Assembly (NCBI GenBank): GCA_976226885.1
Contig: OZ320322.1
Span: 15,128,001-15,192,000, forward strand
Direction of reading: 5' to 3'
DNA from: Iphione sp. A-MEVVRFRX5
Taxonomy: Eukaryota
Length of the DNA stretch: 64,000 bases
Below, in pieces: positions 4,139 through 64,000 of the stretch; the stretch's first letter is position 1; each line of letters begins with the position of its first letter. The notes below the pieces were generated by a model. That model was not told the DNA's origin, searched no databases, and saw only the letters and a program-made list of their open reading frames with translations. The translations under genes and the position numbers were made by a program.

Positions 4139-4143
4139 CTAAA

Positions 4144-28453: not shown

Positions 28454-29032
28454 AAGGTCTCATGAACCTTGTGACACCTGGGAATGGAAGCTCTTAACAT
28501 TTCAGAGGAAAATCACTGGTCGGCCTCATCACCCAACAAAAATAGATCTGGAGAATGGCAAGTAAAGAAGGTCTCCAAGAGAAGCCCTGAAATGAGAAAA
28601 ATTGTAGAAATATGTCAATAAGCAGCCGAAACAAAGACAAAATTGAAATTTGGCAATATAAAAATTACTAAAATTACCAGCAGCGGTAATATGAACTTGC
28701 ATTTTTTTCAAGCAAGAGTTTGGAGATCAGATGACAGGCTGAAGCGAGTAAGTGGCTGTAGCAAGCAGGCGAGTACCAATGTAGCTGACAACTGAATCTT
28801 GGCAAAGTTTAAAGGTCGTTTGGAACCTGCTCTCATCTATTGAACCTGGAGGAAAATAGATCTGACCCCACCCTTGGGGAGGGATGGGGCAGGTGGAGAA
28901 ATCACAAGAGAGGCAAAACAATTCTCAAAAGTGAGAAGGGGGGAAGTTTTGAATTGCCCACCACTGAGATGATGCTATCCCAGAATGCATTGGACTGGAA
29001 CATCATTTTGCTAACAGCGTCTTTGAAGGAAA

Positions 29033-32599: not shown

Positions 32600-34400
32600 G
32601 TGGCAACAGAGGGCACCACTGGTAACAAGCTGTTGGCTGAGGCTCCAACCCCACTTCACTTTGAACAGAGCTGCCGATCATGTTCAGACATTAGCGCCGT
32701 TTGTGTTCGGACATTAGCACGTCCACTTGCCATCTGGTTGAACACTAAAAGGAAACAAGTTCTTCGCTTAGGCATCCCACAGGATACTGCAGGGAAGCCC
32801 TCCTTGAACACTTGAAAGATTTCTCCGATGAGGCCTGCCACGTTCCATTGCCCCACTGTCTCACTGGAGTGGGCAATTATGGGAGGCATACAATTTTGGT
32901 TGGTTATCCCTCGATGATACAGCCTGAATTGAGTAGCTCAAGGGAAGGGCAATGCATGCCTTCCAGCACTCAGCTTCAGGGTCCAGGCCACAGGATAGGT
33001 TAGTGATATGTCCTGACTGATTATCTTCGAAGTGCAAGTAACAACCTCCACATTCTTTGCAATCTGTCTCCGCCATTCATGCCTGCCCAGTTTGATGTAC
33101 TTCCTCACTAGCCTGCCCTGGAAGGAAGTTGATGTACTTTCTCTTTTTGCGACCAAATAATGTTTTTATAATAAAGATTTCTTGAAATGTAATGTATGTT
33201 GGGACGACTCATTGGTCCATTTCCTCAGGTGGGTCGCTGTTGTTGATGGTAGCAGGTGGAGAAGGACTGAACATCTCCACCTCAGGAATCATCTCCAAGG
33301 AGGCATCGAGGACGGCAGATGGTGACGTCGGGGTTGTATTGGCCAATGTCAGGAGGGCATTGTATGCTTCAGGTCCATCCGGATGCACACTGTTGAACAT
33401 GTCTTGTGGTGACATTAACTGCATGTTAATAATTTCCTCCTCTCCCAGGGCCCCAGCTTGGGCTTTGGGAGTGCCAGGGGGAAGCACAGTAAACACAGTT
33501 TTTTTCATTGGGAGGAGGAAGTGCAACCATTTCCATCCCCAGCATATTGTACATAAAGGGCACCCATACTATGAATAATCAGTTGTCATGCAGTTGCAAA
33601 CGATGTGGTGGAGGGACAGCAGAGATTGGGGCCACAACAGCATCTTCATCAGAATTGCTGGCTGGGGAAGGAGGTGGGGTGTTGGCACTCTCCTCGAATA
33701 GTATGGGAGGAAGAAGGCAACCATGGAGGGACAGGATATACACCCTTCCCTCCAAGACTATATCCTCTGGGGCAAGGAGATAAGTTTGCCTAGCATCACT
33801 GAGTCCCCTCCTCCCCAAAACAGTCACCATAAGTGCCCCTTCATGACAGATTGGGTGCACTGTCATCTCTGGGATCCAAAAAGTGAGTGGAGGGCTTCTG
33901 TCTGGAACCCCAGAACGGTGAATGCGAGTTGAAATAGACATGGCTGCGTCTACCAAATTTACTTGGATTTCGGGCCTGAAAAGCCTTTGCATTTTTTAAT
34001 GGTCAGGCAACGGTAACAAACAATCATCCCTGAATCAGTCAGGGTTGCTATCAAACTATGAAGTGGCGAAGCCCTGCAAAGAAACGAAAAATTAAACATG
34101 AATGAAAAAAGATCCACTGAAAATTGAAGAACTTTTGGAAATCCATCAAAATAACATTCAGCATGCACCTGAAAAAGAAATATTTCAGTAAAAAAAAGAA
34201 CATACTTACATTTTTGAGTCTGGAGATGGTCTTGTTATAGGAGCAGCAGTGGTGATCTGTGTCGAAGTTTCTTCTGGAAATAGCGGAAAACAGCAGCAGC
34301 GGTTTCTTTGGCTATGGGCTAATGAACTTTGATGAGATGTGATCCACACCCCATATATACAAAGTTTGGATCTGAAATGAACATCAAAAACTGACATGAT
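32600..34400 (-). pseudogene. Antisense accessory ORF(s) of element B2, possibly spliced
   Basis: Frames 33992-33579, 33526-33209 and 33156-32656 (one internal stop); candidate intron 34074-34209 (AAAT|gtaagt ... ttttcgtttctttgcag|). Confidence 0.45.
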
Positions 34401-34572
34401 GATAGGGTTATGTTAGGTTGCATAATGTTATCCGGTGCGCTGGGTGTGGCAGTGATATTTGAATAGCCCGCCGCTGGACTGCCTCGCATGATCCGTCCCA
34501 TCATGCACTGAACAGGAACGTCTTCCCGGATTGCATCCTTTCAGATCACGCCATTTGTCTTGAAGAAACATC

Positions 34573-36000
34573 ATGGTCATGGCAAAGCATCTGTTTTGTG
34601 ACATCTGCCAAGCTTCGATCAAGGGCCAGAGCAGGCTGAATAAACATTGTGTGAATGTACATGAGATCACTGCCAGCAGCCAACTCCTGAAGATGATCTG
34701 TCTGTGGTGTTCCGACAAGAGGTGTGCACATGAGTCCAAGTCCTTGATGGATCATGTCAAGAGCCAGCATGCCAGTCACGCACACTATGCCATGAGAATA
34801 CCACCAACTATTTGCTCTAAATAACTACTGATGGGAGATCCCGTCAGATTTCGATGAGGGATCTGTGCTCACTATGGAGGCACAAAATCTAGTGTTTGCC
34901 TGGAGACAAAGACCAGGGTAAATTGTCACTCTACGTGGAAAATCCATCGTTGCTGAGGCTGAAGGTAAACCCTCAACTGCTAGCACCAAGAAACAACCCG
35001 GGACATCCCCAAAATGGACCCGTGCGAGTTCCCAATCAGAAGCCACCAAGTTGACCCAAAGGAAAAAAAAACTACAGGAGGAGATCGCTGACCTGCAAAC
35101 CAGTAAATTAAAGAAGAAGGAGGACAAACCTGAACCGGACTCTCCAACAGGGAAATTAGATATCAGCGACATCAGCCTCATCTTGACCACCCCGTCCATG
35201 GAGGCAGATATGAAGCAACTTATGGAGGAGGCAGGGCAAACTTTATTGAGCTTGTCGGACTCTGTTGATATCACAGATCTGTCTCAGACTGATTACAATG
35301 AAGAAAGGCAGTAGACAGGCGAAGTAACAGGAGAAGAGGAGAGAACTGAAGATGGTAAGGGCAAACAAAAGCAAGAAAAAAAGCAAGAACAGAAGAAGAA
35401 TGAGCAAAAGCAAGAAGAATAAAAGACAGGTGAAAAGCTAAAGACAAAGGAAACAGAGGAAGAAAAAGAAAGACAAGAGAAGGTAACATCGAACATGAAA
35501 GAAACCAAGGAAGCGCAGAAAGAGCAACCAAAGATAAAGGAAGGAGGAAAGAAGAAACAGAAAATGAAAGGAACTGAGCCACCTCCCCCTGTGAAACCTC
35601 CACCACAGCGACCTTCAACCCTCCACCAGTGGACAGCAGAAATTGTGGATAGTGTGGCTCCCCATACATGGGAACTGTATGGACCGCCCTGAAGAACAGT
35701 GTACAGCTCAACATCCATATGGAATGGCTGCCGAAGAATTGGGTAGATTGGATGCTGGAACCAAAATATCTGGCCTCCTATTCATTAGCAACCATTGAGA
35801 CACTGAAAGAAGGAAGTTGGGCACCAGGAGACCCCTTCGACCCTCTGCAGGATCAACCTTTCCTGTTGCTCCCGGGGTAGAGGAAGCCAACAGATCCCAG
35901 TTTCTGGAGTGGAAACAAGGACTTTCAGCAGCATAATGCCACCATCAAAGCCATAATGATGCTCCATAGACATGCAATGTATAAGGACATTTGGTTGACT
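34573..36000 (+). pseudogene. Accessory ORF3 of element B2: 2x C2H2, Lys/Glu linker, conserved C-terminal domain
   Basis: CDIC-x12-HCVNVH; CLWC-x14-HVKSQH; WEIP..WRQRPG; WLPKNWVDW..GDPFDPLQDQPFLLLPG..HNATI. Confidence 0.78.
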
Positions 36001-39127: not shown

Positions 39128-41735
39128 TCACACTCGTACCGTTTGAACTAGGCTGCTCTTCGGCAGCTTATCCAAATCCTTTAGTGGATCTGGCAGACTG
39201 TTCCAGATAATTGCACCTCTGTACTGGATGCTTCTCTTGAAAGTCTTTGTTTTAGGGCAGTCAGTTTTGATTCAGAGTGACTTACCAACTCGAGATTTGG
39301 TGCCTTTTGCCATTGGGAGCAGGCCTAGTCTTATCTGTCGGTGTATGGCAGATAAGGCACGTCGAGATGCCATGTCTTCCACTCTTGGTATGGACCCTAG
39401 ATCGCAGATTGTTTTGACTGTCATTCTTGGGTTGATCTGGATTCACAACCTAATACAACGGTTCAGGTGTACTTGCAGGTTCTAGATCAGTGCTTTTGAA
39501 CAGCCGAACAGCATGACAGCACCATACTCCAGATGGGGCTGGACGAGCTCCTTGAAAAGCTTCAATCTTGCGCTCCATGGCAGTAGCCTCTTTACTCTGG
39601 AGATTTTTAAGGCTGCTGCCCACATCTTTCTTTTGATGTCATTAACCGCCTTGCTGGCATTTAGTTTGGCATCAAGAGTATATCCGAGCAGCTTCACTTC
39701 TTTAGCTAGGACCAATTCTAAGCCATTGACCTTGAGGTCAAGGGGTGTCCTGGCTGCTCGTCCCAAGGGCATGTAGCAGCACTTTCCTTCCGACAGAAGT
39801 AAGCCTGCTGACTGACACCAGTTTGACACAGCGTCAACTGCCCTTTGGACGCTGCACAGGCGCAGTAGATCACGAGCACTTACTACGACCAACAGGTCAT
39901 CTGCGTACATGACGGCCCTAGCGTTATCTGGCAGGTTTGCTAGCAACTCATCAATGACCATGCAGAAGGCTATTGGGCTGAACACAGAGCCCTGTGGCAC
40001 TCAGTGCTCGGTTTGCCTTAAGGACGAGTCTTGACCCATACAGCTGATGAACTGAGTTCGATTGCTGAAATAGCTCTTGATCATTCTACAGACTCTCGCA
40101 CACCCTCCGGCTGCTTTCAAGCAACGTAGTACACTAGAGGAAGGCACTAGATCAAATGCCTTCCTCATGTCGAAAGTTAACAAGCAGCAGTACATACCTG
40201 CATTGTTGAGCTCATTGGAGGTGCCAAGGATTGACACTAGCGCAGTCTCCGTGCTTCGCCCACGACGGAATCCGTGTTGGTTCGGGCTGATGAACTGAGT
40301 CTTCTCAAGATGTTTCACTAACTCGGTCTCAAACCATTTTTCGAATAATTTCCCCAGTAGTGGCAACAACGACACAGGTCTGTAGTTGCCCAATGTGTTT
40401 CGATCACCATGTTTTTAAAGAGGGGTGATGCGAGCTGTTTTCCACTCTTCTGGATAATGTCCTGTGTCCATGATCCTGATGAAGATCCATTGTAGGAAAT
40501 CCAGGTTCAGCATCAGAAGCAGCTTGAGTATCTGTGTTGGAATGCCAGCCACTCCCGATGCCTTGCGGACATTCACCCCCTTTACCAATGGACGGAGGGA
40601 GGTTGGGGGTAGGACAATCAGATCGAACGTCCCCTGGTGGTGAGGAGAGGGATTGCAGGCCCTTGGGGGTTCTGTGTAGCTAGCGAGGCGACCCCATCGA
40701 CGAAGTAGTTGTTTAGCAACTCTGAGACAGACTCTGAAGAGTTGTTTACTGTCGCATCCTTGTCAGGCAGTATCATGGATGATTGTTTCCTGCCCATGAC
40801 ATCATTTAATACTGACCATACTCCGGAGCTGTTGCAGCCAGTTGCTTTTAATTTGGAGCTCCAGTAGCATTTTCGGTCTTGTTTGAGGGACTCGCGAACT
40901 TTTTTGTTCAAGAACTTGAAGATCCTGTATGAATCGGCACATCTGTGTGATCTCCACTTGTGGAAGAAATATTTTTTATCCGCAATTAATTCAAGAGTGC
41001 CCTCACTGGGTCGGGAGCCGTCATCTCATTTTCGAGATTTGACGGTACGTACTGGGCATATTTCGTCCAGTGCTGTCCGAGTGTAGTCAGCAAAGTGACG
41101 CCAGGATTCTTGAGGTTCATCAAGAGTGTTGACACCATGCTCCGCGACCTGTTGTTGTAATTTGTTTAGGTCAACAGGGCCCCATTTCCATATTTCCTTT
41201 GTTTGTGTAACCTGTTTGTGACAGCCTTTCTTAATTCAGTGATACCTACTCCACTGCGCTGCTTCCCCAAATAGTCAAAATTGAAGTCCCCTGCCAGGGT
41301 AACATCACAGCGTTTATGCCTCCTGACTTCTTGAAGCACATTGTCTAGTGCTCTGATTGAGTCTTTCATCCGATCATTGGGTGGTTGGTACACGGCAACT
41401 ATCAGGTGAGGTCTGCGTTTGCCAAATTTGAAGAGCAAGCCCAGAAACTCACATTCACTCCCATCAATTGGGAAGTGGATAACTTCCTTTATAGTTATGC
41501 CAGTTTGAGTGTACACTCCTAAGCCTCCACCCCTATGTTTCTTTTCACTCGTCCTATCCAGACGGGTCAGATGATAGCCATCTATATCTACCTCGCTGTC
41601 TGCATGTATATTATTCAACCATGTCTCGGTAACAATACAGACATGGGCATCTTCTCCCTGGAGATGCAGGGCAAGATCTGCCAACTTGCCCTTCAGACTT
41701 TGTATATTATACACAATCAGCTCGAAACCTCTCAT
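39128..41735 (-). pseudogene. LINE ORF2 (AP endonuclease + RT), fragmented
   Basis: YNIQSL, TETWL and GDFNF in APE; NYRPVSLLP, KAFD, PQGS and YADD in RT; C-terminus YRGAIIWNSLP, with stop at 39128 after reading through a premature TAG at 39482. Confidence 0.93.
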
Positions 41736-42600
41736 TGATTGTTATGGAAGTGTATTATGTCTAGCCATGTGCCCCTACAGCCGCGAGTCACCTGATTTTA
41801 GCTAGAAATAAGTATGTCTACTCAAGTCAATATCAGTAAAGTCAAAACGGTCCCTATCTCCTTAGCAATATTACCTTAAGTTGGGTATATTGATTGTCAC
41901 TGTCGCCAGGCTATGTACAGTCATGCTAGCACCACGTCAACACTGAGCCCCTTAGTGTTGTGTCGTATTTGGCCACTCACGTCGTACACTATCACATATG
42001 CCTTATTCTTGTGTCCTCTCTTCCATGCAATTTATATTCTACGACAGTCACTGCTATAGCTACTGGCTTTTATATGCACATTCGTACCATATTCCGATGC
42101 ATACATTACACTGCAAACTGTACTCATCCTGTACCGTCTTCATCAGTCAGTATCACTCATCATCAGGTTTTAATGTCAGCACTCGTTTACTAATCTTCCC
42201 ATAGAGATTATTAATACAATACACAGCAATAGAGATGAATCAACCGATTTTGGTCACAGAGTCATTGTTCCAGTTGTTGATACTAGTGTGATGCACTAAC
42301 CAGTCTTGTATCATATCTGCTTAGTGTTTTAGTGTGCAACTTTTGGGACCGATAAGCCGTGACAGGTAGGCAGAGACAGATAACTAGATAACAGATTCCT
42401 TCTCTATTGTGATAGATCTGATACATGAGGGGACAGTTAGTGCATTTTGGTGCAGATAACCCAAGTAAAGACCTTAAGTAAGTGAAGGGATAAGAAATTT
42501 TAATGCAATGAAACCACCAAGATTCAGTGTGAAATTAAAACCTAAGTTCAGTTGTTACCATACTAGCCTTGGCAAAATTAAGTACAACATGTAGTGTGAT

Positions 42601-42977
42601 CTGTATAGAAAGTAAGTGAAGGTTTGTTGAAACTAACTTATACACAGGTGTTGAAACATCTAGAATGTATCAAAGCCTTACAAATGCGGCCGTCATAAAA
42701 GAAGTAAGATCATGTACAACACGTGGTGTTAACTGTATATAATGTTAGTGAAGGTTTGTTAAAACTAACTTATACACCGGTGTTGAAACATCCAGAATGT
42801 ATCAAAGCCTTACAAACGCGGCCGTCATAAAAGAAGTAAGATCATGTACAACACATGGTGTTAACTGTATATAATGTAAGTGAAGGTTTGTTACAATTAA
42901 CTTATACACCGGTGTTGAAACATCAAGAACGTATCAAAGCCTTACATGCGCAGCCGTCAAAAGAAGTAAGATCATGA
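42601..42977. repeat. 132-bp tandem repeat, ~2.9 copies, in the LINE inter-ORF spacer
   Basis: Unit starts GT(A/T)AGTGAAGGTTTG at 42612, 42744 and 42876. Confidence 0.92.
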
Positions 42978-43367
42978 GTCATGAAATTTGAGTTTCACAG
43001 AGAGTGACTTCTTGAAGAAATGAGTCCTTAAACTCTAAATGGAGTTGATGCAGTATATGGCTGCCAGCCTTCATGAATTATTGGCACTTTTCATGCATGC
43101 CGTGTGAGTTGACAAGTTCTGATAGTCCAAGATCACAGGACTAGTGTCGGATATGGCACATGATACCTGAAGTACTGATTATGACAAATACCTAGAACGT
43201 TTTAAGACTGAAATTTAAGTAACTGGAGTGTCATAACTATAGTACCGATAATCAAGCTGTGCATCAATAATTACGTCAAATGTTCTATTTATGATGCGGC
43301 AAAGTCTCCCAGTCGGTCGTAACCATGTAGCGGCAATGCACTAATCATTTTACAAAAATTTACTCAT

Positions 43368-44010
43368 CTAATCTTGTTTGCCTGAGATAATGCTTGTTGC
43401 GAGGTCCTTCAGGAAGAGCGTTAGCACATGCGACCAGATTGCACTAACCACCGGAGTGACCCGCTCCTAGGTACTGACCTTTCACCGATATATGGTTGTT
43501 TATGTAGTCGTTAACGGGTAAGTCAACCCTTGGTAGCTCGATTCCATACATGCTGGCTCCCATCTTGCAGAAAATGTTGTGCGTGGAGATGAGATAATCA
43601 ACCAGTAGTTGTTCCTCTGGCCCTACGATGTCTGGTTCAAGGTGACAAAGCAGCATACCGGCCATCGGCAGACACAGCAGACCAGGTCCTGTCGCAACGG
43701 GACCGCTCGCCCATCTCCTCAGCTTCCCCACATAATAATGCAGGGTCTCCAGGTAGCGAAGTGGGCTTCGATGATGGGTAGCCCACTGTCCTGTTTCCCA
43801 TCTCATTATTTCCTGACATCCAAATGGGATGAGAACCATGTCAGAGTTGGTTACGTCGACGTAGAGGCGTTCACGCCATAGCTTTTTGTAGGAGCCCTTT
43901 GATACATGCAGCACGTGAAGAGTGATGTGGGGTAGTTCCTCCTTCACGATGTCCTCCACAGCTTGTACCATTCTGTCATCAATCACCAGTAGTATACGCA
44001 GACGATCACA
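43368..44010 (-). pseudogene. SGNH/GDSL esterase-like ORF of LINE copy 2
   Basis: RILLVIDD..SDMVLIPFGCQEIMRWETGQW aligns with copy 1 YDLIIVCIGLHDIIKKETGQW; frameshift near 43450. Confidence 0.55.
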
Positions 44011-44131
44011 GCTGCGAAAAGAATCAGTGACTTAGTGCAGAGTCAGTTCACAACAGGGGCAGGAATTGTGGCACATTTTAAAAACAAGCTACACAATCGA
44101 CAACTTTCAGGGAGGGCATAATGTGGACTAG

Positions 44132-45284
44132 CTAAGATTGATGTTTTGTTCTGATAGCACATAACACCTTCCCGATTAGGTTTCTACCCAGCATTTCAAC
44201 CGGTTTGGACCAGTCCGTTGACAGCGCTACTCCACAGCCCAACGTTTGGTCGGGGTCCACGTAGATTAAATCTTTCTTTTCTGTCTGTAGGAGAGCATCT
44301 ATATCGGCTATACCTGAAGAGAATTTTAGCTCATATAGTTTTGTCAACAGTACCTCGATATCCTGATCCCATCTTTCACAGTTCTCGATCGAATTCCCCA
44401 CTTTGTGTGCAGCATATCCGCTTTTCGTTTTTAAGATGTCCTTCACCTTCGCACCACTGTCGCAACTGTGCAATTTCAAGCACTGTAACACACTTTCCAA
44501 GTTGTCAAAGATTATCCCATCGTATACCATCGGCAGGTGCTCTGTTGGGGAAAGACCTCGTGTATCGTTGGAGAAAATATAACTTTGAACAGCATTTTAA
44601 GAGTTGGTTCCTTGTGTATTTGGAATCCATGTCCACCCCCAGCCTGATCCTGTCTGCAGCCCCTGATAGTGTTTGCACATTCGTCACTTTATCTTTCTTG
44701 ATCCCCGCTATGTCCCATATCATCTTGTGTACGAAAGATCTGGCGTTTTTCTCTTGATCCTTCATTGCTCCTTCTATGATGACCCGTTTCGACCTACCTT
44801 CTAACTCACAATGCGAGAGATCCTCATCCAGCCTTGCACATTTTACCTTTAGGGCAGCCAGTTCTTTGTACAAATTGCATTCTTGCAGCTTCGTAGTACT
44901 AGCCCTTAGCTCATCGACAATGCCTTTTAGGGACTCATTTTCCCATTTCATTGCAGCTAGCTCCTCTCGTAGGGCACTTGTTTCCTTGAAGAATGCTGAC
45001 CTCAGTCCCTTGACTTCTTGTAACAGCATTTGTTGGTCATCATTAGGAAATGAATCCTGGTCCTGTGTGATAATGGTGGGTTTGTCGGTTTGATTTGCGG
45101 CACTTAATTCTGTAATAGGATCAGGCGCGGTACCGTTGTTTACATCAGTGACACCCGTGTCACAGGCATTGACACTGACACCTTCACCCGTGTTGTTTAC
45201 TTCCTGGTTGTCATGGTTGGGCTTCATGCCCATTGGCTTGGGTTTGTTTCTATTGTTGCCCACCCCGCTTGAATCACGGCTCAA
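44132..45284 (-). pseudogene. LINE ORF1 with coiled coil and C-terminal NADAR domain; internal deletion/frameshift near 44580
   Basis: Coiled coil, ELEGRSKRVIIEG, then SYIFSNDTRGLSP..FDNLESVLQCLK..W..LKF..LLQT..DPDQTLGCG..GRNLIGKVLCAIR. Confidence 0.82.
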
Positions 45285-45549
45285 TGAGCGTGAGGATCCC
45301 CTTGGTCTCCCTCACGGACGTAGATTTATGACCTCTGGAGCCTCAGGATTTGATTAAGGTTGTAGAGACGATTTTTTGCCCATTGTGAACGCAGGTGATC
45401 ATGTATGTAGTTGGCACACGGTTATGCATGTCTCACTCGGCCACTATGTCCATATAAATTATACTTTAAAACTTCGAAGGTCCCTCTGGGATCCTACTCT
45501 CACAAATCCCAGATTATTCTGAACTTGGCAGAAAAGTGATCAGAACTCT

Positions 45550-50143: not shown

Positions 50144-50538
50144 CTGCAATATAAAAATTCAGGGGCAATTAAAAGATATGAGAGTATAACATCAGCAAAG
50201 GGCTTGGCTTTTCCCAGAACAAAACATTAACAGCTGTTTCATCCAATCTTTTAAACCGATAATTTTGCCCTTACCCTTAGATTTTTAACCTGAAATGATA
50301 TATTTGCCATTGTTATACATCTTCATTCTGTTTCTGGCATAAACATTTCGTAAAATGAAAACTGAAAAGAATGCTTTCCATTTGACGGATTTCTGTTTGA
50401 TATTTTGATACAGAGATTATTTATATAGAGTGTGTGTGGTAAATGCAGGCCAACTGGACTTGAAATTCATAATACAGGTAGCTTTCAATAGGCAGAAATT
50501 GGAAGCATATTCTAGTATTCTCAAGAAAAATTAAATAC

Positions 50539-51065
50539 TGTGGAGGAGAAGGCAGGCTGCCCTGTGGGAGTGGGGACTGTACTCTGTGACCTGCTGGAAG
50601 CAGGGACCCAACCAGTATTGTTAGGGACCCAACCAGTTAGACAGGGAAACAAGCAGTGTTGGTAAGGGGCCTGTGGGGCCCAAGCAACTGGTAGGGGGAC
50701 CCAACCATTCCTGTATGGGGACCCAGATAATACATTTGATGCCTCCAGGTTTGATTGACAGATGGAACAGACAAGAGTTATGTTGTATCAACTTTATTCA
50801 ATTTTTTGATACATTGATCTGGTCACATGACATATGTATCTGCTATAAATATGGGCCCTGTGTGGCCAATAAACATGTCTGCACTTGAAGCTACCTTGTG
50901 GAACTTGTCTCTCTGGGGATGCTAAGGAACCATTAACTACTTGGAGCTACCATTAAGGGATTAAGCGGGATAACCAATCAGATTAACTGAAGGAATACTA
51001 AGCCAGGAATAGCAGCAATATAGTTGGATTATTCCAAGAAGAGTGACAACACACATTAAATTACA
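50539..51065 (+). repeat. 5' LTR of element C
   Basis: TGTGG...TTACA termini, TATAAA and AATAAA, four GGGACCC motifs; roughly low-90s percent identity to the 3' LTR by eye. Confidence 0.95.
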
Positions 51066-51066
51066 C

Positions 51067-51084
51067 TGGTGTCAGAAGTGTGAT
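51067..51084 (+). promoter_or_regulatory. Primer-binding site, tRNA-Leu
   Basis: TGGTGTCAGAAGTGTGAT, one mismatch to the canonical Leu PBS. Confidence 0.88.
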
Positions 51085-51095
51085 CCTCTGACAAG

Positions 51096-51720
51096 ATGGC
51101 CACAAGGTATGAGGTAGTGGATGATGAGGTGCAGATTTGGGTGCCCAGTCTGGTGCCGGAAGAGGAAGAGGATCACTTTGAGATTGCTCCGGAACAACTG
51201 TTGAAGATGAACACCCTCAAGCTGGAGAGATTTGATGGGAAGACCATGGACTGGGACAGCTGGATTGCCCAGTTCACAGAATGGGCTGATGCTTGCTGGT
51301 GGGGAGAAGACACCAAGTGCTCCACCCTGACATTGTCCCTCACAGGAATGGCACGGATGTACTATGGGGACCTGCCCACAGATGAGAAAAAGGATTACGT
51401 GACTTGAGTGGCTGCCTTGGAGCAGTGCTTCGGATGGTGTAGGGATTGGATTGTTGCCATGCAGAAGCTTTCCAGCACGAGATGTCAGAAGGATGAGGAT
51501 GTACGGGACTTAGTGGACAGAGTCCAGCGCATGGTCCATACTGCATATCCTGATGTGATGGGAGATACCCGGGAGCATGCAGCCATGGCCGCCTTTCAAC
51601 AAGCTCTTGCAGACACACTGCAAGTGTCTGGAGGCGAAATGCACCACCTTGGATGAAGCTATTCAGGTGGTCAAGACACAAGGGCATTTCTGGGCCAAGA
51701 GATCTCCTTTGGGCCCGTGA
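51096..51720 (+). pseudogene. gag: Gag of element C (truncated)
   Basis: KLERFDGKTMDWDSWIAQF..LSLTGMARMYY capsid-like motif. Confidence 0.82.
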
Positions 51721-51893
51721 ATGGAAGACCGCCCGACCAAAGGGAAAGTATCAAGTTGAGCTTAACTCATGATCTGACACTCACGGCGGGGGAGGGGCTG
51801 GCAGCCCCTCTAATTCCCTCAGGGGGCACCCCCATCCTCGTGGAGGGAGTAGGAGAGGAACAGATGTAGAGGGGCATCTTTGGAATTTGATGC

Positions 51894-54800
51894 GTGGTCA
51901 GGGTCACCCTGCCACTGTGGAACCTGGGGCAGACAGAGGTGGTAGTGAAACATGGGACCGTGCCTGCCAAGGGCCACCCTGTACTGGTGGGGGAACCCTC
52001 ACCAATACCCTTGACCCCTAGACTCCAGAACATTTGGCAGGAAGCAGAAGGGGTAGTGGAAGAGCTGCTAAGACAAACTAAGGCCCTGCTTAGCAAGGGG
52101 GAACTTGGAGCCCTTGAGGACATGCTTAGAAGACATGAGGCAGTGTTTGCATGGTCTAAGGGGGACCTTGGTCAAACAGACCTGGTCCAACATCGCAAAA
52201 AACACTACCGACGGGGATTTGTTTTTACTACCAACGTCATGTTCCCCAGTTCGCTAGTGTGGCAGTTCCACTGAACTGCCTCACCAGCACCTGCGTGAAG
52301 TTCATGTGGGGCCCAGAGGAAGAGGCCACCTTCCAGAAGTTTAAGGAGGCCCTAAGCACCAGCCCCATCTTGGGCTATCCGCATCCCAAGGGGAGGTACT
52401 ATTTAGACACAAACGCCAGCAATGTTGGTATAGGGGTGGTCCTAGCCCAGGAACAGGAGGGCCAAGAAGCCGTCTTAGCCTACTATAGTAGAAGCCTCAG
52501 CAAAGCCAAGGGGTGGTATTGCATGATGCGGCAGGAGCTGCTGGCAGTGGTGGCGGCCCTTAACCCTTTAACGACCAGGAAAAATTAGGTTTTTGCCTCT
52601 GGAAATAGAGGTAGAAGCTTATCTGTGTTCCTAACAGGAGTATAGAGATAGACCTGATATTGTGTCATACATCGTTGTAAACCTTGGGAATTGTACTTTG
52701 ATTGAACATCAATTTTGTTCCTATAATTTAGTTGTCATGGTAACAGGATAGCCCTGAGTATAGGCGATTTTTTCTGAAAAAAATGAGAAATTTACACTTA
52801 TTCAATTATATAAGTTATAAATATTGGTTTTAGAGAAAAACTTACTATTGAGCAAATGTTCAGGAAGTGATTTGCAATCTTTTGATACCTCATTTTTTGC
52901 TCTCTATTAATCAAATACATTGTATCATGAGCTGCCATTTTGTATCTATCATGCAAAAAATGTAAAATCCTATGCATCAGCTGCATCATTGATATTGCAT
53001 GAGCAGTCTTTAGGTGTTACCATGGTAACAAATTGAATAATTGATAAATCATATCAATTAGATCTAAATGCTTATTAGTCAGTCTAACTCTTTATATGTA
53101 ATTTTGGTAGGAAACATAACATATCTTCAACAGATTTGGCAAATATAATATGTGTGCCTATTGCAAAACACTATGTAATGCATCACATGATATATATGCC
53201 CATTGCTAGTAAAATGCAACTGACATTTGTCTGTTGTATTCTATCTAACTGAATAAAGAAGAGGACAAACTATGAAAAAGTTGCTCAAAATAAATCATAA
53301 ACTCAAATTCTATGGTATGATTTAAAAATATATTGCAATTCTACTAATTGCTTGAACTGTAAAAGAGTTTACTTTCATCATAGTACATATGTATAGTGGT
53401 AAAAATAGCTGCTGACTGTAATTTATGCAAATGAGGAAAGTCATGTGATCAGTTTTAAAGGCTTTCCTCTTAAAACAGTGCATTTTTCCATAACACCTAA
53501 GGAGAACACCATATTTTTGTCTTATTTTTACAGAAATAGAGAGAATATCTTCAAAATTCATGTTTTTAAATCATCACGAAGTTGCATCGGACAAAAATGT
53601 CTGATTTTACCATTGTTGGTCATTGAAGGGTTAAGCACTTCCACTTTTACCTCTACAGACAAGAAGTTATAGTGCGGACAGACAATGGGGCTGTCAGCTG
53701 GCTGAGTAAAATCAAGGACCTGGAAGGCCAGCTGGCTTGTTGCCTCGAATGGATCAGACAGTACCGCCTGTAGCTGGTACAATGGGCCGGGTGACTTAAC
53801 GCAAACGCCGATGCCTTGTACTGGCACACTTGCCGCCAGTGCAAACAACCACACCTGGAGGAGCTGCACCTGGAGGAGGAAGAGATGGAGGCACCCCCTG
53901 TAAGAGTAGACACCAGGAGCCAAACCGTCCCAGCCCAGTCATGAGAACTGCAACAGGCACAGTTGCAGGACAAATCCATCGGTCTGATACTGCCCCTTTG
54001 AGAGGACTGCGTGGATCAGCCCGCTTGGGAGGATGTGTCAGCATTGCGCACCGCTGCCAAAGCCCTCTGGTGGTAATGGGACCGGCTGGTGGTTAATGAG
54101 GGCCAGCTCCAATGGTGATGGTATGGATTGGGGGTGGAGCTATCCTGACTGCAGGTGGTGGTCCCCATTGAACATCGGGAACAGTCCATCCAGGAGGCTC
54201 ATGGAGGACAGAATGGGGCCCACCTAGCCGCTGGATGCATGGCTTACCTGGTTTCACTAGCATACTATTGGCCAGGAATGCAGAAGGATATAGAGGCCTA
54301 CTGCCAACGCTGCCACTGTGCACTTCTCAACTGATCACCAACGACCCCAAACCCCTACCTGACCTACCTGTTGGGGGAGCCGAAGGAGAGGTGGTCAATG
54401 GATGTGGCAGGCCCCTTTCCCTCAACATCACGGGGAAATCACTATGTCCTGATGGTCGGGGACCACTTCACCAAGTGGCTAGAGGCCTTTGTGATGCCAG
54501 ACCAGAAAGCTGAATGGGTAGCTACCATATTAGCAGAGGAAGTGATAGCACGTTACAGGTGTTTCCTGAAACTGCATAGTGACCAAGGCACCAATTTCTG
54601 TAGCGAGGTCCTCACTGCGCTCTGCACTTTCTTGGACATCAAGAAGACTCTGACCACCCCCAGACACCCGCAGAGTGACAGGTTTGTTGAGAGAAGTTTC
54701 TGGATCATGGGAAGAATGATCAAAGCCCACTGTCATGAGACTGGAGACAAATGAGATGAAGCGCCGCCGTACCTGCTTATGGCATATCGGGCGTCCCCAC

Positions 54801-55350
54801 AAGCTAGCACTGGCTACACTCCCAATTACCTGATGTTTGGTAGGGAAGTGGTACTCCCAGTACACGCCTTAGTCCGGGTTTCCTCAGCAGCTGGCAGATG
54901 CCAGGCCACTCCTCGAAAAGGTGGCGGACACCACATGACACCTACAGGAGGCCTACAAGAGGGCAAGGCATCACCTGCAATGTGCGGCCCGTACACAGGC
55001 AAGGGCACAAGACTGCTGGATGGCGGGACACCCCCTCCAGGAGGGAGATGTGGCTTGGTTACATGAAGCACAGCCCCTGAAAGACAGGAGCCCCAAGACG
55101 CACTTTCCCAGGACGGGACCGTGGCTGGTTGTGAAAAGACTGGACGATGATCGAATGGTCATGCAGAGGATGCATCAGGGAAAGGCTAAAGTCGTACACC
55201 ACAACAGGTTGTGAGAATACAAAGGAAGAGACCCACCTCGTTGGATCAATTCTTGGGAGAGATGCCAAGCGGAGCAGTCTGATATGGCGAGGGAATCTAT
55301 GGTAGCAGGAGCAGGGAAGTTGGCATAGTGGAAGATGGCTGTTGCGCAAT
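51894..55350 (+). pseudogene. pol: Pol remnant of element C (RNase H and integrase), split by a MITE
   Basis: SPILGYP, YLDTNAS, LAYYSRSL; MDVAGPFP, VGDHFTKWLEAF, HSDQGTNF, TGPW; no YxDD present. Confidence 0.9.
52564..53630. mobile_element. Non-autonomous piggyBac-type MITE (1067 bp)
   Basis: TTAA TSD at 52560-52563 and 53631-53634; TIRs CCCTTTAACGACCA and CCCTTCAATGACCA; removal restores VAALKHFHFYLY in RNase H. Confidence 0.93.
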
Positions 55351-55399
55351 AGTTCATGGGGCAAGGCGGGAAGCTCGGACTTGGAGAAGGACTCAAAGG

Positions 55400-57370
55400 A
55401 CCTGCGTCGGCTTAATGGGTGGCCGGAAGGCAAAGAAGAGCCTGAGAATGAGCCCATGAGGAGACGTGGACAACCGGGAGGCACTCAAAAATCTGGAGGT
55501 ATTGGGAAGCACCTGGAGGCACTTACCTTGGAAGCTTCGGTAGGAGGATGGCCATCTTGGAGCAGTAAGAAGGCCAGGGAGGGAGGACAAGCATCCTGGG
55601 GTTGCCTTGAAATTTCCAGGAGAAGATGAACCTCCTGGAGCACGCCAAAAATGTTTACAATAGGGCTGGCAGATGCCCTGGAGGGGACACTTTGAAAATG
55701 ATTCGCAGTACGTGACGCAGGCTTGCGGCGAGACGAAATGCGTAAGGGCGACCGAGTTGTGGTCCATTTCCTCTGGTAGTTGCATCCCTCTGGAAAACCC
55801 AAGCCTAGTCGTGACTCCTTTTCCTCTAGAAGATGATGGGGGGCCAAGATGCAGTCCCTGTCCTCTGGATGGAATATAGCCAGGTATCGGCAGATTACAT
55901 CCGATGAGAAGCGTAGCTGAGGCAGAACTGGAAGGGGGGGTTAGGATACCAGTGAAAATGAGCACCCCCCTAGCGTTTCAGCATACTACCTACCTGTTAC
56001 CTGAAGAACCATTCCCTGTGAAGAAGATGAGGCTGGAAGTAGAAGAGACAACAGAACATTTATTACAGATATGTATAAGGGGAATGGAGGCAAGTGATCC
56101 GCTGCATGGTAAGTCCTAGGGACAGCAGCTACTCCAACAGAATGGGGAGGCAGGCAAGATCACCCAACCAGTCTGCAATGCCCTCCACCAAGGCTCACCC
56201 TAGGAGAGGCCCGGTCTCTGACGACCTGACCAGGGTGGGGCGGGAGGGCGTATCTCTCATTGACACTGACTCCGGCAATGGGGACCTTGTAGGTGAAGAT
56301 TCAGCTGAGCTGCTAGAGGAACTGCTGGAGCTCAGAGTGGGGAACCAGTCTGGCGAGGCGGCCCTAGGCGGTGTTCGGGCTGGGAAGAGCCCAGATGACT
56401 CATCCTCTGAAGATGTCCCATAGTGAGGGCTCCATGGGTCGAGCTGCTCAGTGGTCCATGAACCCAGCGACCAAGAGCGGTCACTGACTGGTGACGGAGA
56501 ACGATGCACGGCTGGGCCCTCCAGCCTGGCAAGGCAGACTCCTACTGACCGGAGGCTCTGCTCTGGGGAGAGTGTTTCCGCCTGGACAGAATAGCGAGGC
56601 GAGGTGGGAGGTACAGGCGGCATCATTGGGCTGTGGGGACACAGCACAGAGGGCTCCATCAGATAGATACTGATTTCCACCTGGTGATGGGGGCCATAGA
56701 GGTGAACATGGCCTGGAGCTGGGATGTAGAGTGGCTTGGTTAAGACGGGATACAGGTCATAAACCCGGATCATGGGTCCTGGAGTGCCGATGTTGATCGA
56801 GCAATAGTAGGTGTCTGGGGGACAACTCCTGCAAGCAACAAAGTGGGAAGAGCGTGAGCAGTAGCATGGAACATTAACAGTGGCATGGAAGGTGAGGAAA
56901 AGGAGAAGGGGCTAAAAAAAAAAGGAGAGCCTTACCAGGTCAGCCTCTTGAGGGTAGACAACAAGCAAGAAGTCACGAAACAACTGAGGAACCTCCAACT
57001 GCATGGTAACAGGTTACTGGTCCTTGGAACAACCCTACCTGTCATCAACCAGGGGGTACCCCACCAGCTCACAAGCAAGGGCCTTGAGGTCAGGGGAGCC
57101 ACAAGGAAGGTCAGCTGGAAAGCACATCCTACAAGGAAGAGAAGAACACTATCCTTAGGTGACAGTCTGGACTGGTTAACCTTCCCCCCTCCCTGTTCAA
57201 ACCTCCAAGTTCACTGTAAGAGCCAGGAGGTAAAAGTAGGGAATCCCTGTGACCAATAGGAAAGAATGATCCTCCCCTGTCAAACACTGCATGACCATCC
57301 GGTATCCCAGGCAAGTAAAACCCGTGTTGGGAAAGGCCTGTGAGGTAGGATGGTATCTCCATGGTCACAA
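55400..57370 (-). pseudogene. Antisense accessory ORF(s) of element C, possibly spliced
   Basis: ORF 56195-56773 extends in frame to an acceptor at 56829; candidate intron 56829-56935 (CTG|gtaagg ... ttgcttgcag|); second acceptor near 57131. Confidence 0.45.
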
Positions 57371-58497
57371 GCAGGGGTGTGTGTACACTCCGACGTCACC
57401 GCGAAGACTAGCGAAGCGGCGAACCGCGCCGACTTTTATATGTTGCAGTGCGGGACATCCCGATCGGGGTGCCCTGAGCAAATTGTACAGAGACCCGAAG
57501 GATTTTTTTCACTAAAAAGAGGTGCAAATGCAGCCAGGAGGGGCCCCAAGTGCAAACATAGGAGCTTGAAAACAGTTGAGAGACCACGAAACAGGGGGGG
57601 ATATAAAGGCTTTGTCTCAATTTCTCAACAGGGACCCAACCAAAGCAGTGACCGGGGAATCCCTCGGGGAACTCCGAGCAGAACTGGAGCTTCGTTCTTG
57701 TGTTTGGCCCTGAAAATCGAAGCTTAGTATAAAACTGGGTGAATAAGAATAGGGAAAATGAGCATAGGGACCCGAGACGGAGTAAGAAGAACATTTTACC
57801 TGATGATCCCCACAGGGAGGGACCTGACACAAGGATACCCACATGGACTGGCCGATTTTATCCGCCAGGGGGGGGGGACCCAAAGTGAAAACACACTTTT
57901 AGGCTGGTCAAAGTTCGCCATTTAGGGGGGGGGGGTAGGAGTAATATATGCTCTGGGGGACCCATGCAGACAGCCAGAGGCTCGTTTTCGGATCATGGAG
58001 ATGAATGTCGTTCGCGCTGAAGATATTTTGAAGAAAACAGGGAGAAACATGTGAAGATACTAGCAGAGACATGGAGATAGGGGAGAGGGACCCATCAGGG
58101 CTACAGAGAAGCCAGCGACAAGCGTGGAAACCCACTAGACAGGCCTAAGAGTGACCTCGATCAAAGACGTCGCACGGATGGGACCCAAAGGGATTCTCCC
58201 AAAGGCGTAAGTGCAGCAACTTTCATTAGGGGACCCGAATTGAGCTGATACAAAGAAACTTTTTGTGGGTGACCTGTAAAGACTCTCACCCGGTACCCCG
58301 GACGAATGTTACTCAGCAGGGGGGGACCCGACTGACTGCCATTACAAGAAGGGGTATGCCAGCTGGGTGCCATCCAGTGCCCCAAGGAGGGGACCCGACC
58401 AGTTGTCGGAGGGAGGCACTGAGAGGGGAGGACCCCCCGAGGGAACCACTGCAGTCGTGGGTCATCCATCACCCTGAGAATCAAGGATGCCACGCAA

Positions 58498-59640
58498 ATG
58501 GGTGGCATAGCCCAAGCTCAAGAAGCGGGTGCTCAAGAAGGATTACCCCCTCCCCCTGGCACCGAGCTTTGTCCCAAGTGTGTTACCCGTTGGCCGTTTT
58601 ACCCGGGAACGTCCATAGAGCGGCACGACGATGCGGTGCATAAGGGGAAGCGGAGGAGGGGCCTGTATTGTCTATATTACCCTTCCATCATTAGTGATGT
58701 GCACTCCTGGACTGCCCATGTGCATAAGTTCTACCCATAAGCAGCCAAGATGGGGCTGGTTAAAAAGCCATACAGAGGACTGTATGATGTCACCCCAACA
58801 GAAGAGGCCCAAGGAGATGTCCTGGACGACACCCATGCAGAGGTCATCCTTTGCGCCCGAGCTCTAAGAAGGGAAGACTGGTCCATGAGCCAGGAGGAGG
58901 CTGAGGCAATACTGTTGAGTGCTGCGCCATGTGCTACACTGGCCAAGACGCGTCGATGGGACATGCCGACCCTGCCCGACACTGCCCTCTGACCACCAGA
59001 CATGGCAGGTGGGGTGGGGAACGCCACCGCTCTGAGGTCAACCAGGAAGCTGAAAGACGTGATGGCCGGCACCCGTGTGGCTAGCAAGGCTGAAGCAGCA
59101 ACTTCAAGCTATCAGCTGCCAGCACTGCTGGCCCAATCCTGCTCGTCAACCAATGACTTGAAGGTGGGCATCCGGAGTACCCCTCGACGGACCCGTTCGT
59201 TGGCAGGAATTGGTGGACTCCTGTTGTGCCAAGGGGACTGTGCATCCAGAGCCTCCCCGAGACTCTGCAGTGGCCCCCTAAAGGCTGGTCCACCTGGTCG
59301 CCAGCTAAGAGGCTAATGGTGAGTGCCTCTGTGGCTTGGGTGGCCCACTTGGCTGAGAGGAACCCCACTGCCCCACGATCCCTGCTGGCCCCCATCCATA
59401 AGAGGCCCTGGCTACTACTACCATGACTGCGCCTCCCACAGCCCGAGGACTGGGGAGATCTGGAGGCCACCTATGGGTGTCATAACCGCACCATAGATGC
59501 CGCAGAGTGGCTAGTGAAAGACTTTCAGCCCGGTTTAGGCTGGGTGGAAGGCCCTCAGGTCGACGAGGCTCTGTGGCAAGGGGAGGCGGCCCTCAACCAT
59601 AACCGATGAGAGGAGCGTGACTCCCTCATGGCTGATGTGT
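58498..59640 (+). pseudogene. Accessory ORF3 of element C: 2x C2H2 and conserved C-terminal domain
   Basis: CPKC-x14-HDDAVH; degenerate CLY(Y)..HVHKF(Y); WPPKGWSTW..SASVA..PWLLLP..HNRTI. Confidence 0.72.
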
Positions 59641-60711
59641 GTCGCAGTGCTCCCCCGTGACAAGCCCGGTTGGGGCTGTATGACATTTGGCTGAGAGACA
59701 AGATAGCAGCCCCTCACCTGCCTCTGCCTCTGGGCAGCACTACCGTGGTGGTCCACATGACCAAGTTATAGATGGTTGGGGCATTACCTGTGGGGCATTT
59801 TCTTGTAGAGGGGGGGCAACAGGGAAGAGTCACCCCAATGACACAACTATGATTATCCCCGAATTTGTAACCTTACCTGTTTCGATTGTGTTGTTATCCA
59901 CTCCACCGGTAGGTTGTGCTAGATAGGCTGTTCTAGGATACACCCAGGGGACTGTACCCCACAAAAATAGTGATGACTGTATAACTCTGTGATTCAAGGA
60001 TGGTATGTCAACTTAACACTGTATGGTGTGGGTATGAGTATTCCTGAGATTGAGACCTTACCTGTATCAATGATGCTTTTACCTAGTTAACAGGAAAGTT
60101 GTGCCAGACGAGCTGTTACTAGGTGACTCAGTACGCTCGCTGCCCCAGTTGTTATCGCTAAAGATAAGAAAAGGTTTGTGGAAAAGAAAAAACGGGGGCC
60201 TGTACGCCAACAAAAAGGATGATTACCATTGTGAGTTGTGGACTGTTGTTGTGGTGCCCTGATTCCGTACTTACCTTGTGATGTGTCGTGCTTGTTACTC
60301 AAGGTGTGTGGTAAGACCAGAAGTTAAGAAGAATTCATGAAAGGGGACTGTACCCACAAAAAGAGTAATGATTGTACCACACTATGATTCTGAGGATTGC
60401 GCTTGATAAGTGCTTTGTTGTTTAAAAGCATAATTAACTGTTATGATCTGGGACGTTACAGTGATCAAGTGCCCTGTTGTTACGATTTGAGCATCTAGCA
60501 TAACCATAGCCAGTATGGTCCGTAGTGTTACCTTTATCAGGTGCCTTGTTGTTTTGATCTGACATGAGAAACTAATCAAGTGCTGCAAAGGATGTTACTG
60601 AGGAGTATGATAGTCCTGTTATGATCTATATACTGTTGACATCAAGTGTCTTTAACAGTGTGAGTTTCCCAGCTGTCCCTGAAGGGGGAGCCTATTTTAA
60701 GCAGGGGAGAG

Positions 60712-61232
60712 TGTGGAGGAGAAGGCAGGCTGCCCTGTGGGAGTGCGGACTGTACTCTGTGACCTGCTGGAAGCAGGGACCCAACCAGTATTGTAAGGGA
60801 CCCAACCAGTTAGACAGGGAAACAAGCAATGTTGGCAAGGGGTCTGTGGGACCCAAGCAACTGGTAGGGGGACCCAACCATTATTGTATGGGGACCCAGA
60901 TAATACACTTTATGCCCCCAGCTTTGATTGACAGATGGAACAGACAAGAATTATGTTGTATCAACTTTATTCAATTTTTTGATACATCAATCTGGTCACA
61001 TGATATGTGTATCTACTATAAATATGGGTCCTTTGTGGCCAATAAACCAGTCTGCACTTGGACTACCTTGTGGAACTTGTCTCTCTGCTAAGGAACCATG
61101 AACTACTTGGAGCTACCATTAAGGGACTAAGTGGGATAACCAATCGGATTAACTGAAGGAATATTAAGCCAGGAATAGCAGCACTATAGTTGGATTATTT
61201 CCAAGTAGAGCGACAACATGCATTAAATTACA
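60712..61232 (+). repeat. 3' LTR of element C
   Basis: Copy of 50539-51065 with five GGGACCC motifs, followed by TSD ATAC. Confidence 0.95.
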
Positions 61233-64000
61233 ATACCCTCCATCTATTTCAATAAGGAGCATTAATCCACTACAACTGAGATGGCAATTCTTAAAACCTA
61301 AGGAGGGTAAGGATAATACTGCAGATGGTGCAGTAGTAGTTTACTTGCCTCCTCAGCAGCCAGTTGGGGAGCATTATATAAGGGCCACTGGCAAGCCTCA
61401 GTCGCTCAGCTACTGCATGCCTAGCTGTATTAGATACACACTTACGTGGGCTAACTGACCACACACTCATCGGGGATGAGCAGAAGTAAAGCAAGGAAAT
61501 AAAGGGATCTACCACTCAGATGAGGGCAGCTAAGACAGTATCTGGTGAGTCAAGTGGTCTGCAACTCAAAATAACCATCACCACCAGGAGGCCAGGATGA
61601 TGCAGAGGATGAAGAATTCAGGTCTTAGTACCCTCCCCCAGACTAACTGAGAGACCTTGCCAATGACCGAATCGAACAGCTCTTGTATTCAATTTACCCA
61701 GAACTGCTCTCTTTCATGGACATGTTTCACCTGCCCTGTTTGAGTACTAGTCTGGTAAGCCAGGTATCACCACCATGTCAGCTTTTCAGTATATAAGTGG
61801 ACTATTCAATATGTACAGAATGGATTCATTACCATTTGATATAGCCAAGAAAGACATTATAGTACAAGTGAAGAAAATCTCATATGAGGCATTATACCAG
61901 CCATGCATCACCAAGGAAGTTGTGGGTGAAGTGTGGGATAGTGTCACTATGAAAAGACTTGTTCTGTCAGACAATTACACAACTCAGCTAGCATAAGGCC
62001 AAGTAATTAATGAGTAGTTCCAGGGCACAGTGGCAGCAGCAGCTACTCAGCCCTTTATTTGTTATCCTGAGTGGTTGCAGGGAAAACGCAAAAGAGATAC
62101 TTACAACCACATGGGAGAGTACCTAGTGTCGTGTGTGCATGTTTGATTGTGTTCTGTTTAGGCGATCCACATCATGGGATCTGTTTCAAATCTGACACAG
62201 ATTATACTATGCAGATAGGTATTGCATAATAAGGTAACTATGACATATATGTATATATAACACAACAGGAGTTTTGTAGCTACATTAAGAATGGATTACA
62301 CATTCTCCTCCAGTCCAAACATATGCCTAGACAGAATGTCTATTTTTTGCTACTATTATGTAGTCATGTAGTATATAAGTGTACATGTTTTCCTGAATAA
62401 ACCCTTTCTCCTTGACCTCCTGAGAGAGACCACCCCTCGCACAACTATTTCATGTCTTTGGAGTGAACCAGATTCTTTATTTTGTTATTTGTTCAAATCT
62501 ACTATCTGCCAATGCTCTCCTAGACTAAGACATGTTACACAATTTTCTCTAGCATGTCCATGCATCTATTATTTCACCATTTACAAGAATCTAGACCACT
62601 AGCTGGAGGCCTGGAGGAAGAGGAGACACCTGATAAAGGAGGACAATGGGCAGTGCATCATCAAAGATGATGGACCAAGCACCTCAGCCATAGTGGGATA
62701 CCCAGAAGCAGCAAGATGGTTCGCAGGATTAGTTGAATCTGACTACAATGACCTACTAAGCCATCCTCCTTAATGAACTGTCCAAATAGATCCCCGATAT
62801 CAATTATTTTTCAGAATTCCCTCCAAACCAGGATAGCAATGTATCATGTTTTGTGTAACTTCCCCCTCCCATCTTGAATTGCTGTAAAGGAGGGAGGCAA
62901 AAATTTATTGTGTGGTTAGGATGAGAGAGAGCCATAATATGTTAGAAGCAAGAGTACCTGTATAGACCACACCAAATCTTCCAGCATGGCAGGAACTGTT
63001 ATCACCTCTTTACCCTATTTACCCTTCATAAAATAAGTGAATTTTGTGTAACTATCTGAAATATGGTTTCTGCATTGGGCCTGAGATTTGTGCCTGAACC
63101 AACAGTGTGTCAGCAGCAGAATATCCCCAGCATGTTACCCACTATATTGAATTGAATTGAATTGAGTGAAATTTTATTTCTGACAATCGCCACCTAAAGG
63201 CGGTATAGTTTGTACAGAAACATTGAAGTTATACAATTACATACAATGGCAGTAAGTCAAACAAAAGTAAATTTTAATATTTATGTGGAGATACATTTGG
63301 AAGATACACTCAAATCAGTAGTTGATTGACAGTTTTTTAGTAACACATCAAGTTTATTCCATACATCGTACCTGTTGTAGATTGAAGACATTTTTTAATT
63401 CAAACCTGAGTGTTATTTGTTTGAAATGTTTGTCATCTTGATGATGTAACATCGTGTTTTTTACTGATGGCAATAGACTAAGACTAACCATTTTGTGTAA
63501 TAGTTCAATAGTGAATAGATCCATTCTCCTTTTACACTCATTTTTTCATATTTCAAATGTCAATTTTGTACAAATAAATTGTCAAATACAAGATTCTAGT
63601 CATGTGTACATTCCATTTTTAAATAATAGTTCAAAATCTATTTTGTATTCTTTGAGGCTGTTCACGTTCTCTCCGATTATAAAAAGATAAGAAGGTGATT
63701 GAATGATCTTAGTGTGGGCGTACACAGCATTTATACAGTAATAAACAATCTCATGGTCTCAAGTAAGTTCTAACCTTGTTAAGAACATACAGCTTTTTGT
63801 TGTAAGTAATTTTAATTTGAGCCAATTCACCATCAAACTTCAATTTTGAGTCAATCATTATACCTAACTACTGAAGCTGCTGGTATAATGAACTTCTTCA
63901 TTAAGCATATATATTGGTTCCTTTAGGATGTTATTCTTTTCCGTACCAGGCCATACTGTTAAGATGTTACTGTTTTTCGATTTTTTAGACAACACCATCA

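Follow-up and report, generated by a model that had tools for sequence, protein, structure and literature searches.

This locus raises the question of why a single seven-base word, GGGACCC, should be repeated many times between two divergent genes of a decayed retrotransposon and again in both of its long terminal repeats (LTRs). LTR retrotransposons are usually held to borrow the transcription factors of their host, and zinc fingers are known as a host weapon against them. The elements described here apparently carry a finger of their own, in a gene that we call ORF3. The original prediction, made on the 64,000-nucleotide stretch of DNA that we refer to as the window, was that the array forms part of a bidirectional internal promoter, and that the element's own zinc-finger protein, or a host factor, binds both this promoter and the LTR. 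Comparison with relatives in the same genome leads us to the view that the copies in the array are probably sites where the element's own ORF3 protein binds; acting as a dimer, this protein would switch on both promoters, LTR and internal, within its own family.

Element C, at 50539-61232, belongs to the Ty3/Gypsy LTR retrotransposons and has decayed. It has the hallmarks of that group, namely TG...CA LTRs, a primer-binding site, a polypurine tract and a target duplication, and the order of its genes, gag followed by pol with protease, reverse transcriptase (RT), RNase H and integrase, was read from the translations of intact relatives together with the remnants in element C. The 5' LTR (50539..51065) and the 3' LTR (60712..61232), both on the plus strand, are 92% identical, and the element is flanked by a 4-bp duplication, ATAC (50535-50538 and 61233-61236). 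The primer-binding site (51067..51084, plus strand) we take to be of the tRNA-Leu type, and the polypurine tract lies at 60702..60711 on the same strand. The gag and pol genes (51096..55316, plus strand) are broken; protease and RT are mostly deleted, and remnants of RNase H and integrase remain. An unrelated, non-coding, AT-rich insertion in pol (52564..53630, unstranded), with CCC...GGG ends and a TTAA duplication, is presumably piggyBac-like. Downstream of pol lies ORF4 (56150..57362, minus strand), an antisense gene, predicted to be spliced, for a protein of unknown kind; its first exon runs from an ATG at 57362 to a donor at 56935, and a T-rich intron separates it from a large last exon (approximately 56828-56150, minus strand). 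This last predicted intron (56829-56935) is tiny and contains a long T-run, as it does in the young families that were read. ORF3 (58487..59690, plus strand) encodes a basic N-terminus, two C2H2 fingers, a helical subdomain, a low-complexity linker and a C-terminal domain of approximately 200 aa, and it too is broken.

All nine internal copies of GGGACCC first described (57631, 57767, 57875, 57957, 58087, 58180, 58230, 58323 and 58390; array 57631..58396) are present, every one on the plus strand, and they lie, as proposed, between the antisense ORF and the zinc-finger ORF, in a spacer of approximately 1050 bp separating ORF4 from ORF3. The copies noted in the LTRs are present too. The U3 region of the 5' LTR holds four exact copies (starting at 50603-50718) and one GGGGCCC on the plus strand (array 50603..50724), with 122 bp between its final site and the TATA box that follows in the LTR (50844), and the 3' LTR holds five exact copies (starting at 60776-60891 and covering 60776-60897). 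In the whole window GGGACCC occurs 20 times against 6.8 expected, and none of 100 shuffles reached at least 20; locally (57400-58450) the expectation is 0.39 copies, and no more than five arose in any of 3000 Markov simulations. The commonest 7-mer of any identity in the local interval reached at most six copies in 1000 simulations, so that a post hoc choice of the best word cannot account for nine. A longer form, GGGACCC(G/A)A, gives 14 matches against 0.76 expected. A decayed tandem repeat was considered as the source of the internal array and ruled out, since TRF detects no tandem repeats across the internal interval and the flanks of the spacer sites are mostly non-repetitive, in keeping with the context originally described. 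Two details of that description need revision. The irregular spacing applies to the spacer, where the gaps show no helical phasing, and not to the LTRs, where the copies follow steps of approximately 21 bp; and the left edge of the array lies further out, with 14-bp dyad-type sites (unstranded) at 57464..57477 and 57664-57677 and with two further sites, at 57490 and 57819, that are decayed in element C and exact in relatives.

The evidence for a bidirectional promoter in this spacer is stronger for one direction than for the other. A TATA box on the minus strand at the left edge of the spacer (57433..57440 in element C) is present in 21 of 25 elements and is followed shortly by the conserved first coding exon of ORF4, which supports a predicted antisense promoter at this edge. 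The dyad-type site at 57464 is approximately 38 bp from this box, and in 13 of the 16 lineages with a located TATA the first site of the lineage's own class lies 31-41 bp from it. On the plus strand no conserved TATA box was found in the spacer (four of 25 elements have one, at no fixed place), and inspection by eye revealed no obvious splice acceptor upstream of ORF3. The sole support for the sense half is the element GCCTCGTT, which does not depend on word class and may be a TATA-less initiator of ORF3. Of 20 lineage spacers 14 contain it, and in most of these it lies 230-285 bp right of the antisense TATA; in element C this candidate lies at 57687..57700 on the plus strand, with a second copy at 57977-57990.

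When the 1.18-Gb genome was searched with the finger region, at least 150 scored matches were obtained from 961 candidates, many of them in open frames of 550-700 codons. The first ten copies retrieved all have the same layout, in which gag-pol is followed by an antisense gene that carries splice signals, by a CpG-rich spacer and by ORF3; nine of the ten have paired LTRs. The N-domain of ORF3 (approximately 145 aa) is conserved and comprises the two C2H2 fingers and helices; it is modelled as a pair of C2H2 fingers in tandem (pLDDT 82), and all eight zinc ligands, in the form CxxC...HxxxH, are invariant in 25 of 25 intact sequences. A fold search with this model returned mostly C2H2 arrays as top matches, all of them weak and none at E <=0.001. 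Sequence and model together thus identify the N-domain as a tandem finger pair with predicted DNA-binding function. The linker varies and is often acidic, with many Pro, Ser and Ala residues; the C-domain (approximately 200 aa) is conserved, with an unreliable fold model (pLDDT 45). ORF3 is under purifying selection: dN/dS among relatives is 0.02-0.16 (finger domain) and 0.04-0.12 (C-domain). The last exon of ORF4 gives 0.10-0.11 in two pairs of relatives, all figures coming from the pairs that give a value, dS being saturated in most distant pairs.

We found no homologs outside this genome for the ORF3 N-domain, for the C-domain profile (searched against longer proteins only) or for ORF4. Four proteins, including ORF3 and the last exon of ORF4, matched no Pfam family; a profile search of 1.84 billion representatives gave 17 matches, none at E <=1e-10, and the seven inspected were generic C2H2-type proteins; the Atlas gave no usable match for the C-domain, and a PDB sequence search gave a single, spurious one. 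Transposon ORFs are frequently left uncalled in databases, and these blank searches are consequently no proof of absence.

The relatives also supplied the check that had been asked for, namely whether the motif is specific to families. U3 and spacer of a given family carry repeated copies of one word peculiar to that family, and this word is seldom found elsewhere in the same element. Five word classes form a 14-bp dyad, built as half-site, NN and half-site around GG-NN-CC; the word of F667 is GGGCCC, and that of the element C group is GGGACCC with one constrained flank. Hexamer profiles of U3, built with no motif assumed, were closest to a spacer of their own word class in every one of the 20 lineages, against 5.1 expected. 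Sites of a lineage's own class occur at 7-19 per kb in both U3 and spacer, against off-class densities that are mostly 0 and at most 4.7. The two regions are non-homologous, the longest local match between them being 34 bp. U3 arrays lie in tandem units and expand by tandem duplication, and the spacing of their sites follows a period of 10.3-10.4 bp (R 0.68, p ~3e-4 over 18 distinct gaps). The sites are under purifying selection: among 18 young copies, shared changes affect 3 of 139 motif columns and 55 of 675 columns in the rest of the spacer (p 0.01). Linkage may carry U3 and ORF3 together, yet it cannot give two non-homologous regions one word.

Some copies have a composite history. L045 and L046 are 95% identical to L141-L152 in R-U5 and differ from them in U3 words and in fingers, which suggests that spacer, ORF3 and U3 may move as a single module. 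L077 (G000:C5:4731500-4741400) and L105 are chimeric, with a 5' part from the family of element C, a U3 fragment of another family, and a third family as the source of spacer, ORF3 and 3' LTR. L077 had first been classed by its 5' part; it fell out of the finger tree, and its membership of G11 was rejected on account of its divergent finger and of its own word in spacer and 3' LTR.

The word follows the recognition helix of finger 2. We scanned 538 three-residue windows of the finger domain, C-domain, integrase and ORF4 in 27 lineages; L075, in which the spacer is partly deleted, was omitted from the covariation analyses and kept an assumed label in the bootstrap trees. The finger-2 window 70-72 ranked first of the 538, with an AMI of 1.0 with grouped residues and 0.91 ungrouped (next 0.82), the merging of classes and the residue groups having been picked after the data were seen. 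Ranked by single columns, integrase and ORF4 columns stand above finger columns, and the finger is not singled out. Read from helix position -1 to +3, with the half-site given on its GG strand, DEQ(S/T) goes with TCGTGG, DVH(S/A) with T(T/C)GGGG, DEHY with CTG(T/C)GG, DEYY with CTACGG and HEQ(S/A) with TGGCGG; the helix of element C, DVHS, agrees with its constrained half-site. Position +3 corresponds to base 1, -1 to base 2, +2 to base 3 and +1 to base 4; the first three are in the canonical C2H2 register, and +1 lies outside the canonical contacts. The finger-base pairings Asp-C and His-G have been published (PMC12264921, available part); two of the present classes, by contrast, combine Asp at -1 with T instead of C.

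An advance prediction of the word, made from helix positions +1 to +3 only, was scored on 20 new copies, of which 8 matched, 11 failed and one had decayed too far for a score. Wherever a new copy repeated a -1 to +3 helix known from the earlier set, the predicted word was present (8 of 8). The 11 failing copies have EQS/A at +1 to +3, yet carry the word CCGCCA in both regions, and they differ at -1, a position invariant until then; the rule for -1 is post hoc, as this position was added after the failures.

The part of the original prediction in which the element's own protein binds both LTR and internal region thus finds strong support in the comparison, through the family-specific words, the non-homology of U3 and spacer and the tracking by finger 2. 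That ORF3 binds the words is, on this evidence, very likely, and its binding would be sequence-specific; we are less sure that it activates, rather than counteracts silencing or represses. In each half-site, taken on its GG strand, the invariant GG would be contacted by finger 1 and the four bases outside it by finger 2; two ORF3 monomers would span the 14-bp dyad. The element C group and F667 would use a shortened dyad with one dominant half-site, which would explain why all sites of element C lie on one strand. ORF3 residues 78 and 123 (P0001 numbering) distinguish the five lineages with short spacing from those with 14-bp dyads, and may be what sets the geometry of the dimer. The basal activity of the CpG-rich spacer would yield some ORF3, which would feed back on the spacer, and hence on antisense ORF4 and on ORF3 itself, and would then drive genomic RNA from the LTR. 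With each family confined to its own word and finger, families would therefore not cross-activate. Less favourable to this scheme is a distant clade of the same layout, which has 5-7 half-sites in U3 and only 1-2 in the spacer.

Element C cannot run such a circuit itself, because its ORF3 contains frameshifts and stops and its finger 2 has lost two zinc ligands. The nearest finger relatives with the word of element C (L073, L074 and L076) are broken too, so that the family looks extinct, and element C would be a fossil of the proposed circuit.

Of the other readings, the one that survives best keeps the same sites and the same protein, and has ORF3 act chiefly on chromatin, as an anti-silencing factor like VANC, or in repression and copy-number control, and not as a direct activator. 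All the evidence for binding applies to it equally, and a second cluster of sites lies directly before the start of ORF3, where binding could repress. Tandem growth of the U3 arrays resembles that of VANC targets, as described in the available part of PMC5735166. CpG is decaying in this genome, singleton transitions being approximately three times higher at CpG than at other C/G; the spacers are CpG-island-like (CpG o/e 0.8-1.3; gag-pol 0.6-0.75), and CpG is part of several words. However, the CpG singleton rate in 18 young copies is 0.23 in the spacer and 0.20 in ORF3 (one family group, small counts), and since the spacer rate is not below that of ORF3 there is no footprint of lasting CpG protection. 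Furthermore, phased sites upstream of TATA boxes fit an activator. We therefore consider a mainly chromatin-based or repressive role rather unlikely, and direct activation by ORF3 the better reading.

A host factor, which the original prediction had allowed for, is a highly improbable explanation. Here the two promoters of each family would be tuned to a different host transcription factor, and the correlation with the finger would reflect shared descent. Several words do resemble what we take to be host sites: NF-kB for GGGGTACCCC, RUNX for TGTGGT/ACCACA and the Hes N-box for CACGAG. The structure of ZBTB7A has been solved on GGACCC (PDB 7n5w, entry consulted in part). In addition, word classes are close to clades, and the independent word changes consequently number only four. 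Against this, unrelated host factors would not be expected to share the single GG-NN-CC dyad geometry of the five words, and the word changes map in order onto the contact residues of a conserved finger encoded by the element. Moreover, a branch that sets the CCACGA class apart is recovered in 86% of bootstraps of the finger tree and in 0% of those of gag, integrase and ORF4 (C-domain 6%, RT 57%), and the neighbouring element A, which has no ORF3, has no motif array of this type. Still less credible is that the words are RNA-level signals for dimerisation or packaging, or passive relics of tandem duplication and copying: the dyads are self-complementary, palindromic dimer signals are known among retroelements and the U3 arrays lie in tandem units, but a period of 10.3 bp is characteristic of duplex DNA, the sites of element C are one-sided, those of the spacer lie in mostly non-repetitive flanks non-homologous to U3, the sites are under selection, and neither version explains the covariation with the finger.

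Binding by the element's own ORF3 has counterparts in known systems. Tas (Bel-1) of foamy viruses, a DNA-binding protein encoded in the 3' region, acts on the U3 promoter and on an internal promoter of its own gene (PMC7390438, available part). The analogy with Tas originally drawn holds, at the level of sequence, for a predicted DNA-binding protein encoded in the 3' region with targets in LTR and internal region; it does not extend to the targets themselves, which in Tas share little sequence, according to the same partial source, and in the ORF3 elements are one repeated word. Furthermore, the hosts of ORF3 are Gypsy elements, the intact relatives lacking an env ORF, spumaretroviral or other; the protein is of C2H2 type and matches no Pfam family, the internal region also serves an antisense gene, and activation, which in the available account has been shown for Tas, is for ORF3 a proposal. 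VANC proteins of Arabidopsis VANDAL elements, which are Mutator-like, co-evolve with family-specific arrays of short motifs in non-coding regions that grow in tandem (PMC5735166, seen in part), features shared by the arrays described here, and VANC has been structurally linked to MAIN (PMC13547354, in the portion available). VANC differs in belonging to plant DNA transposons, in its oriented, non-palindromic motifs and in the demethylation shown for it, as far as these partial accounts go, whereas the ORF3 system belongs to an animal Gypsy retrotransposon, with C2H2 fingers, dyads, no Pfam or database homolog and no methylation footprint in the CpG-decay test.

Three further systems are similar in part. 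Spm TnpA and transposase-borne activators provide sequence-specific activation of cognate copies (bioRxiv 10.64898/2026.08.24.746577), like the role proposed for ORF3, but in DNA transposons and with a helix-turn-helix domain derived from transposase; the words 'retrotransposon' and 'zinc finger' have no occurrence in the available part of that preprint. The plant Gypsy elements Retand and Grande have a similar layout, with a long region from pol to LTR, an antisense TRP28 ORF and family-specific repeats of suspected regulatory role (PMC11963269); however, TRP28 (PF04195) was not matched by ORF3 or by the last exon of ORF4 in Pfam, and neither a sense ORF with a recognised domain nor a protein-motif link is described in the available part of that report. 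The Tor elements of Oikopleura are animal LTR elements that likewise have an internal promoter after pol (PMC4402516); it drives env, and no element-encoded regulator is apparent in the available text. In the full-text literature we found no description of an element like those reported here, whose ORFs may be catalogued in subscription journals, supplements or repeat databases. Most likely, the ORF3 system resembles Tas and VANC, is unrelated to them, and represents a new form of element-encoded, sequence-specific regulation.

A large group of animal Gypsy retrotransposons carries an extra two-finger gene, and each family is likely to have its own private transcription switch. If binding is confirmed, this would be an animal retrotransposon counterpart of Tas and VANC, independently reached. 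A broader proposal, which we regard as evenly balanced, is that these families constitute orthogonal transcription-factor systems, in which single changes in the helix of a dimeric two-finger protein, together with the rewriting of dozens of sites across both promoters, create insulated regulatory channels. If so, many families could coexist, and perhaps speciate, in one genome; their fingers would provide a natural and readable recognition code; and thousands of LTR binding-site arrays would have been spread that could couple host genes to the activity of the elements. Since five natural pairs of protein and word coexist, the joint change in specificity of a regulator and its many sites is directly testable, and a word common to U3 and 3' spacer is a simple handle in the search for such systems elsewhere.

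The window contains other elements. Element A (1563-11856) is a young Gypsy element with LTRs 98.5% identical and an ORF of 832 aa that by eye looks env-like. A relic at 33579-35964 (relatives L085-L104) belongs to a second clade of the same layout, with an antisense ORF, two fingers and a related C-domain; a first look at the genome gave 3117 candidates of this clade, TCCG(C/T)GA half-sites recur in its LTRs and are consistent, post hoc, with Glu at -1 and Ser at +3, and its spacer has TATA-like boxes on both strands and few sites. The interval 29000-30500 holds the relic of a third, more distant ORF with fingers and a C-domain, within another decayed Gypsy element. Two LINE-like remnants on the minus strand (19210-23692 and 39482-45311) contain pieces that by eye are endonuclease- or RT-like, and both are preceded by extra ORFs of unknown kind. 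A 132-bp tandem repeat in three copies (42574-42976) lies between LINE-like ORF remnants.
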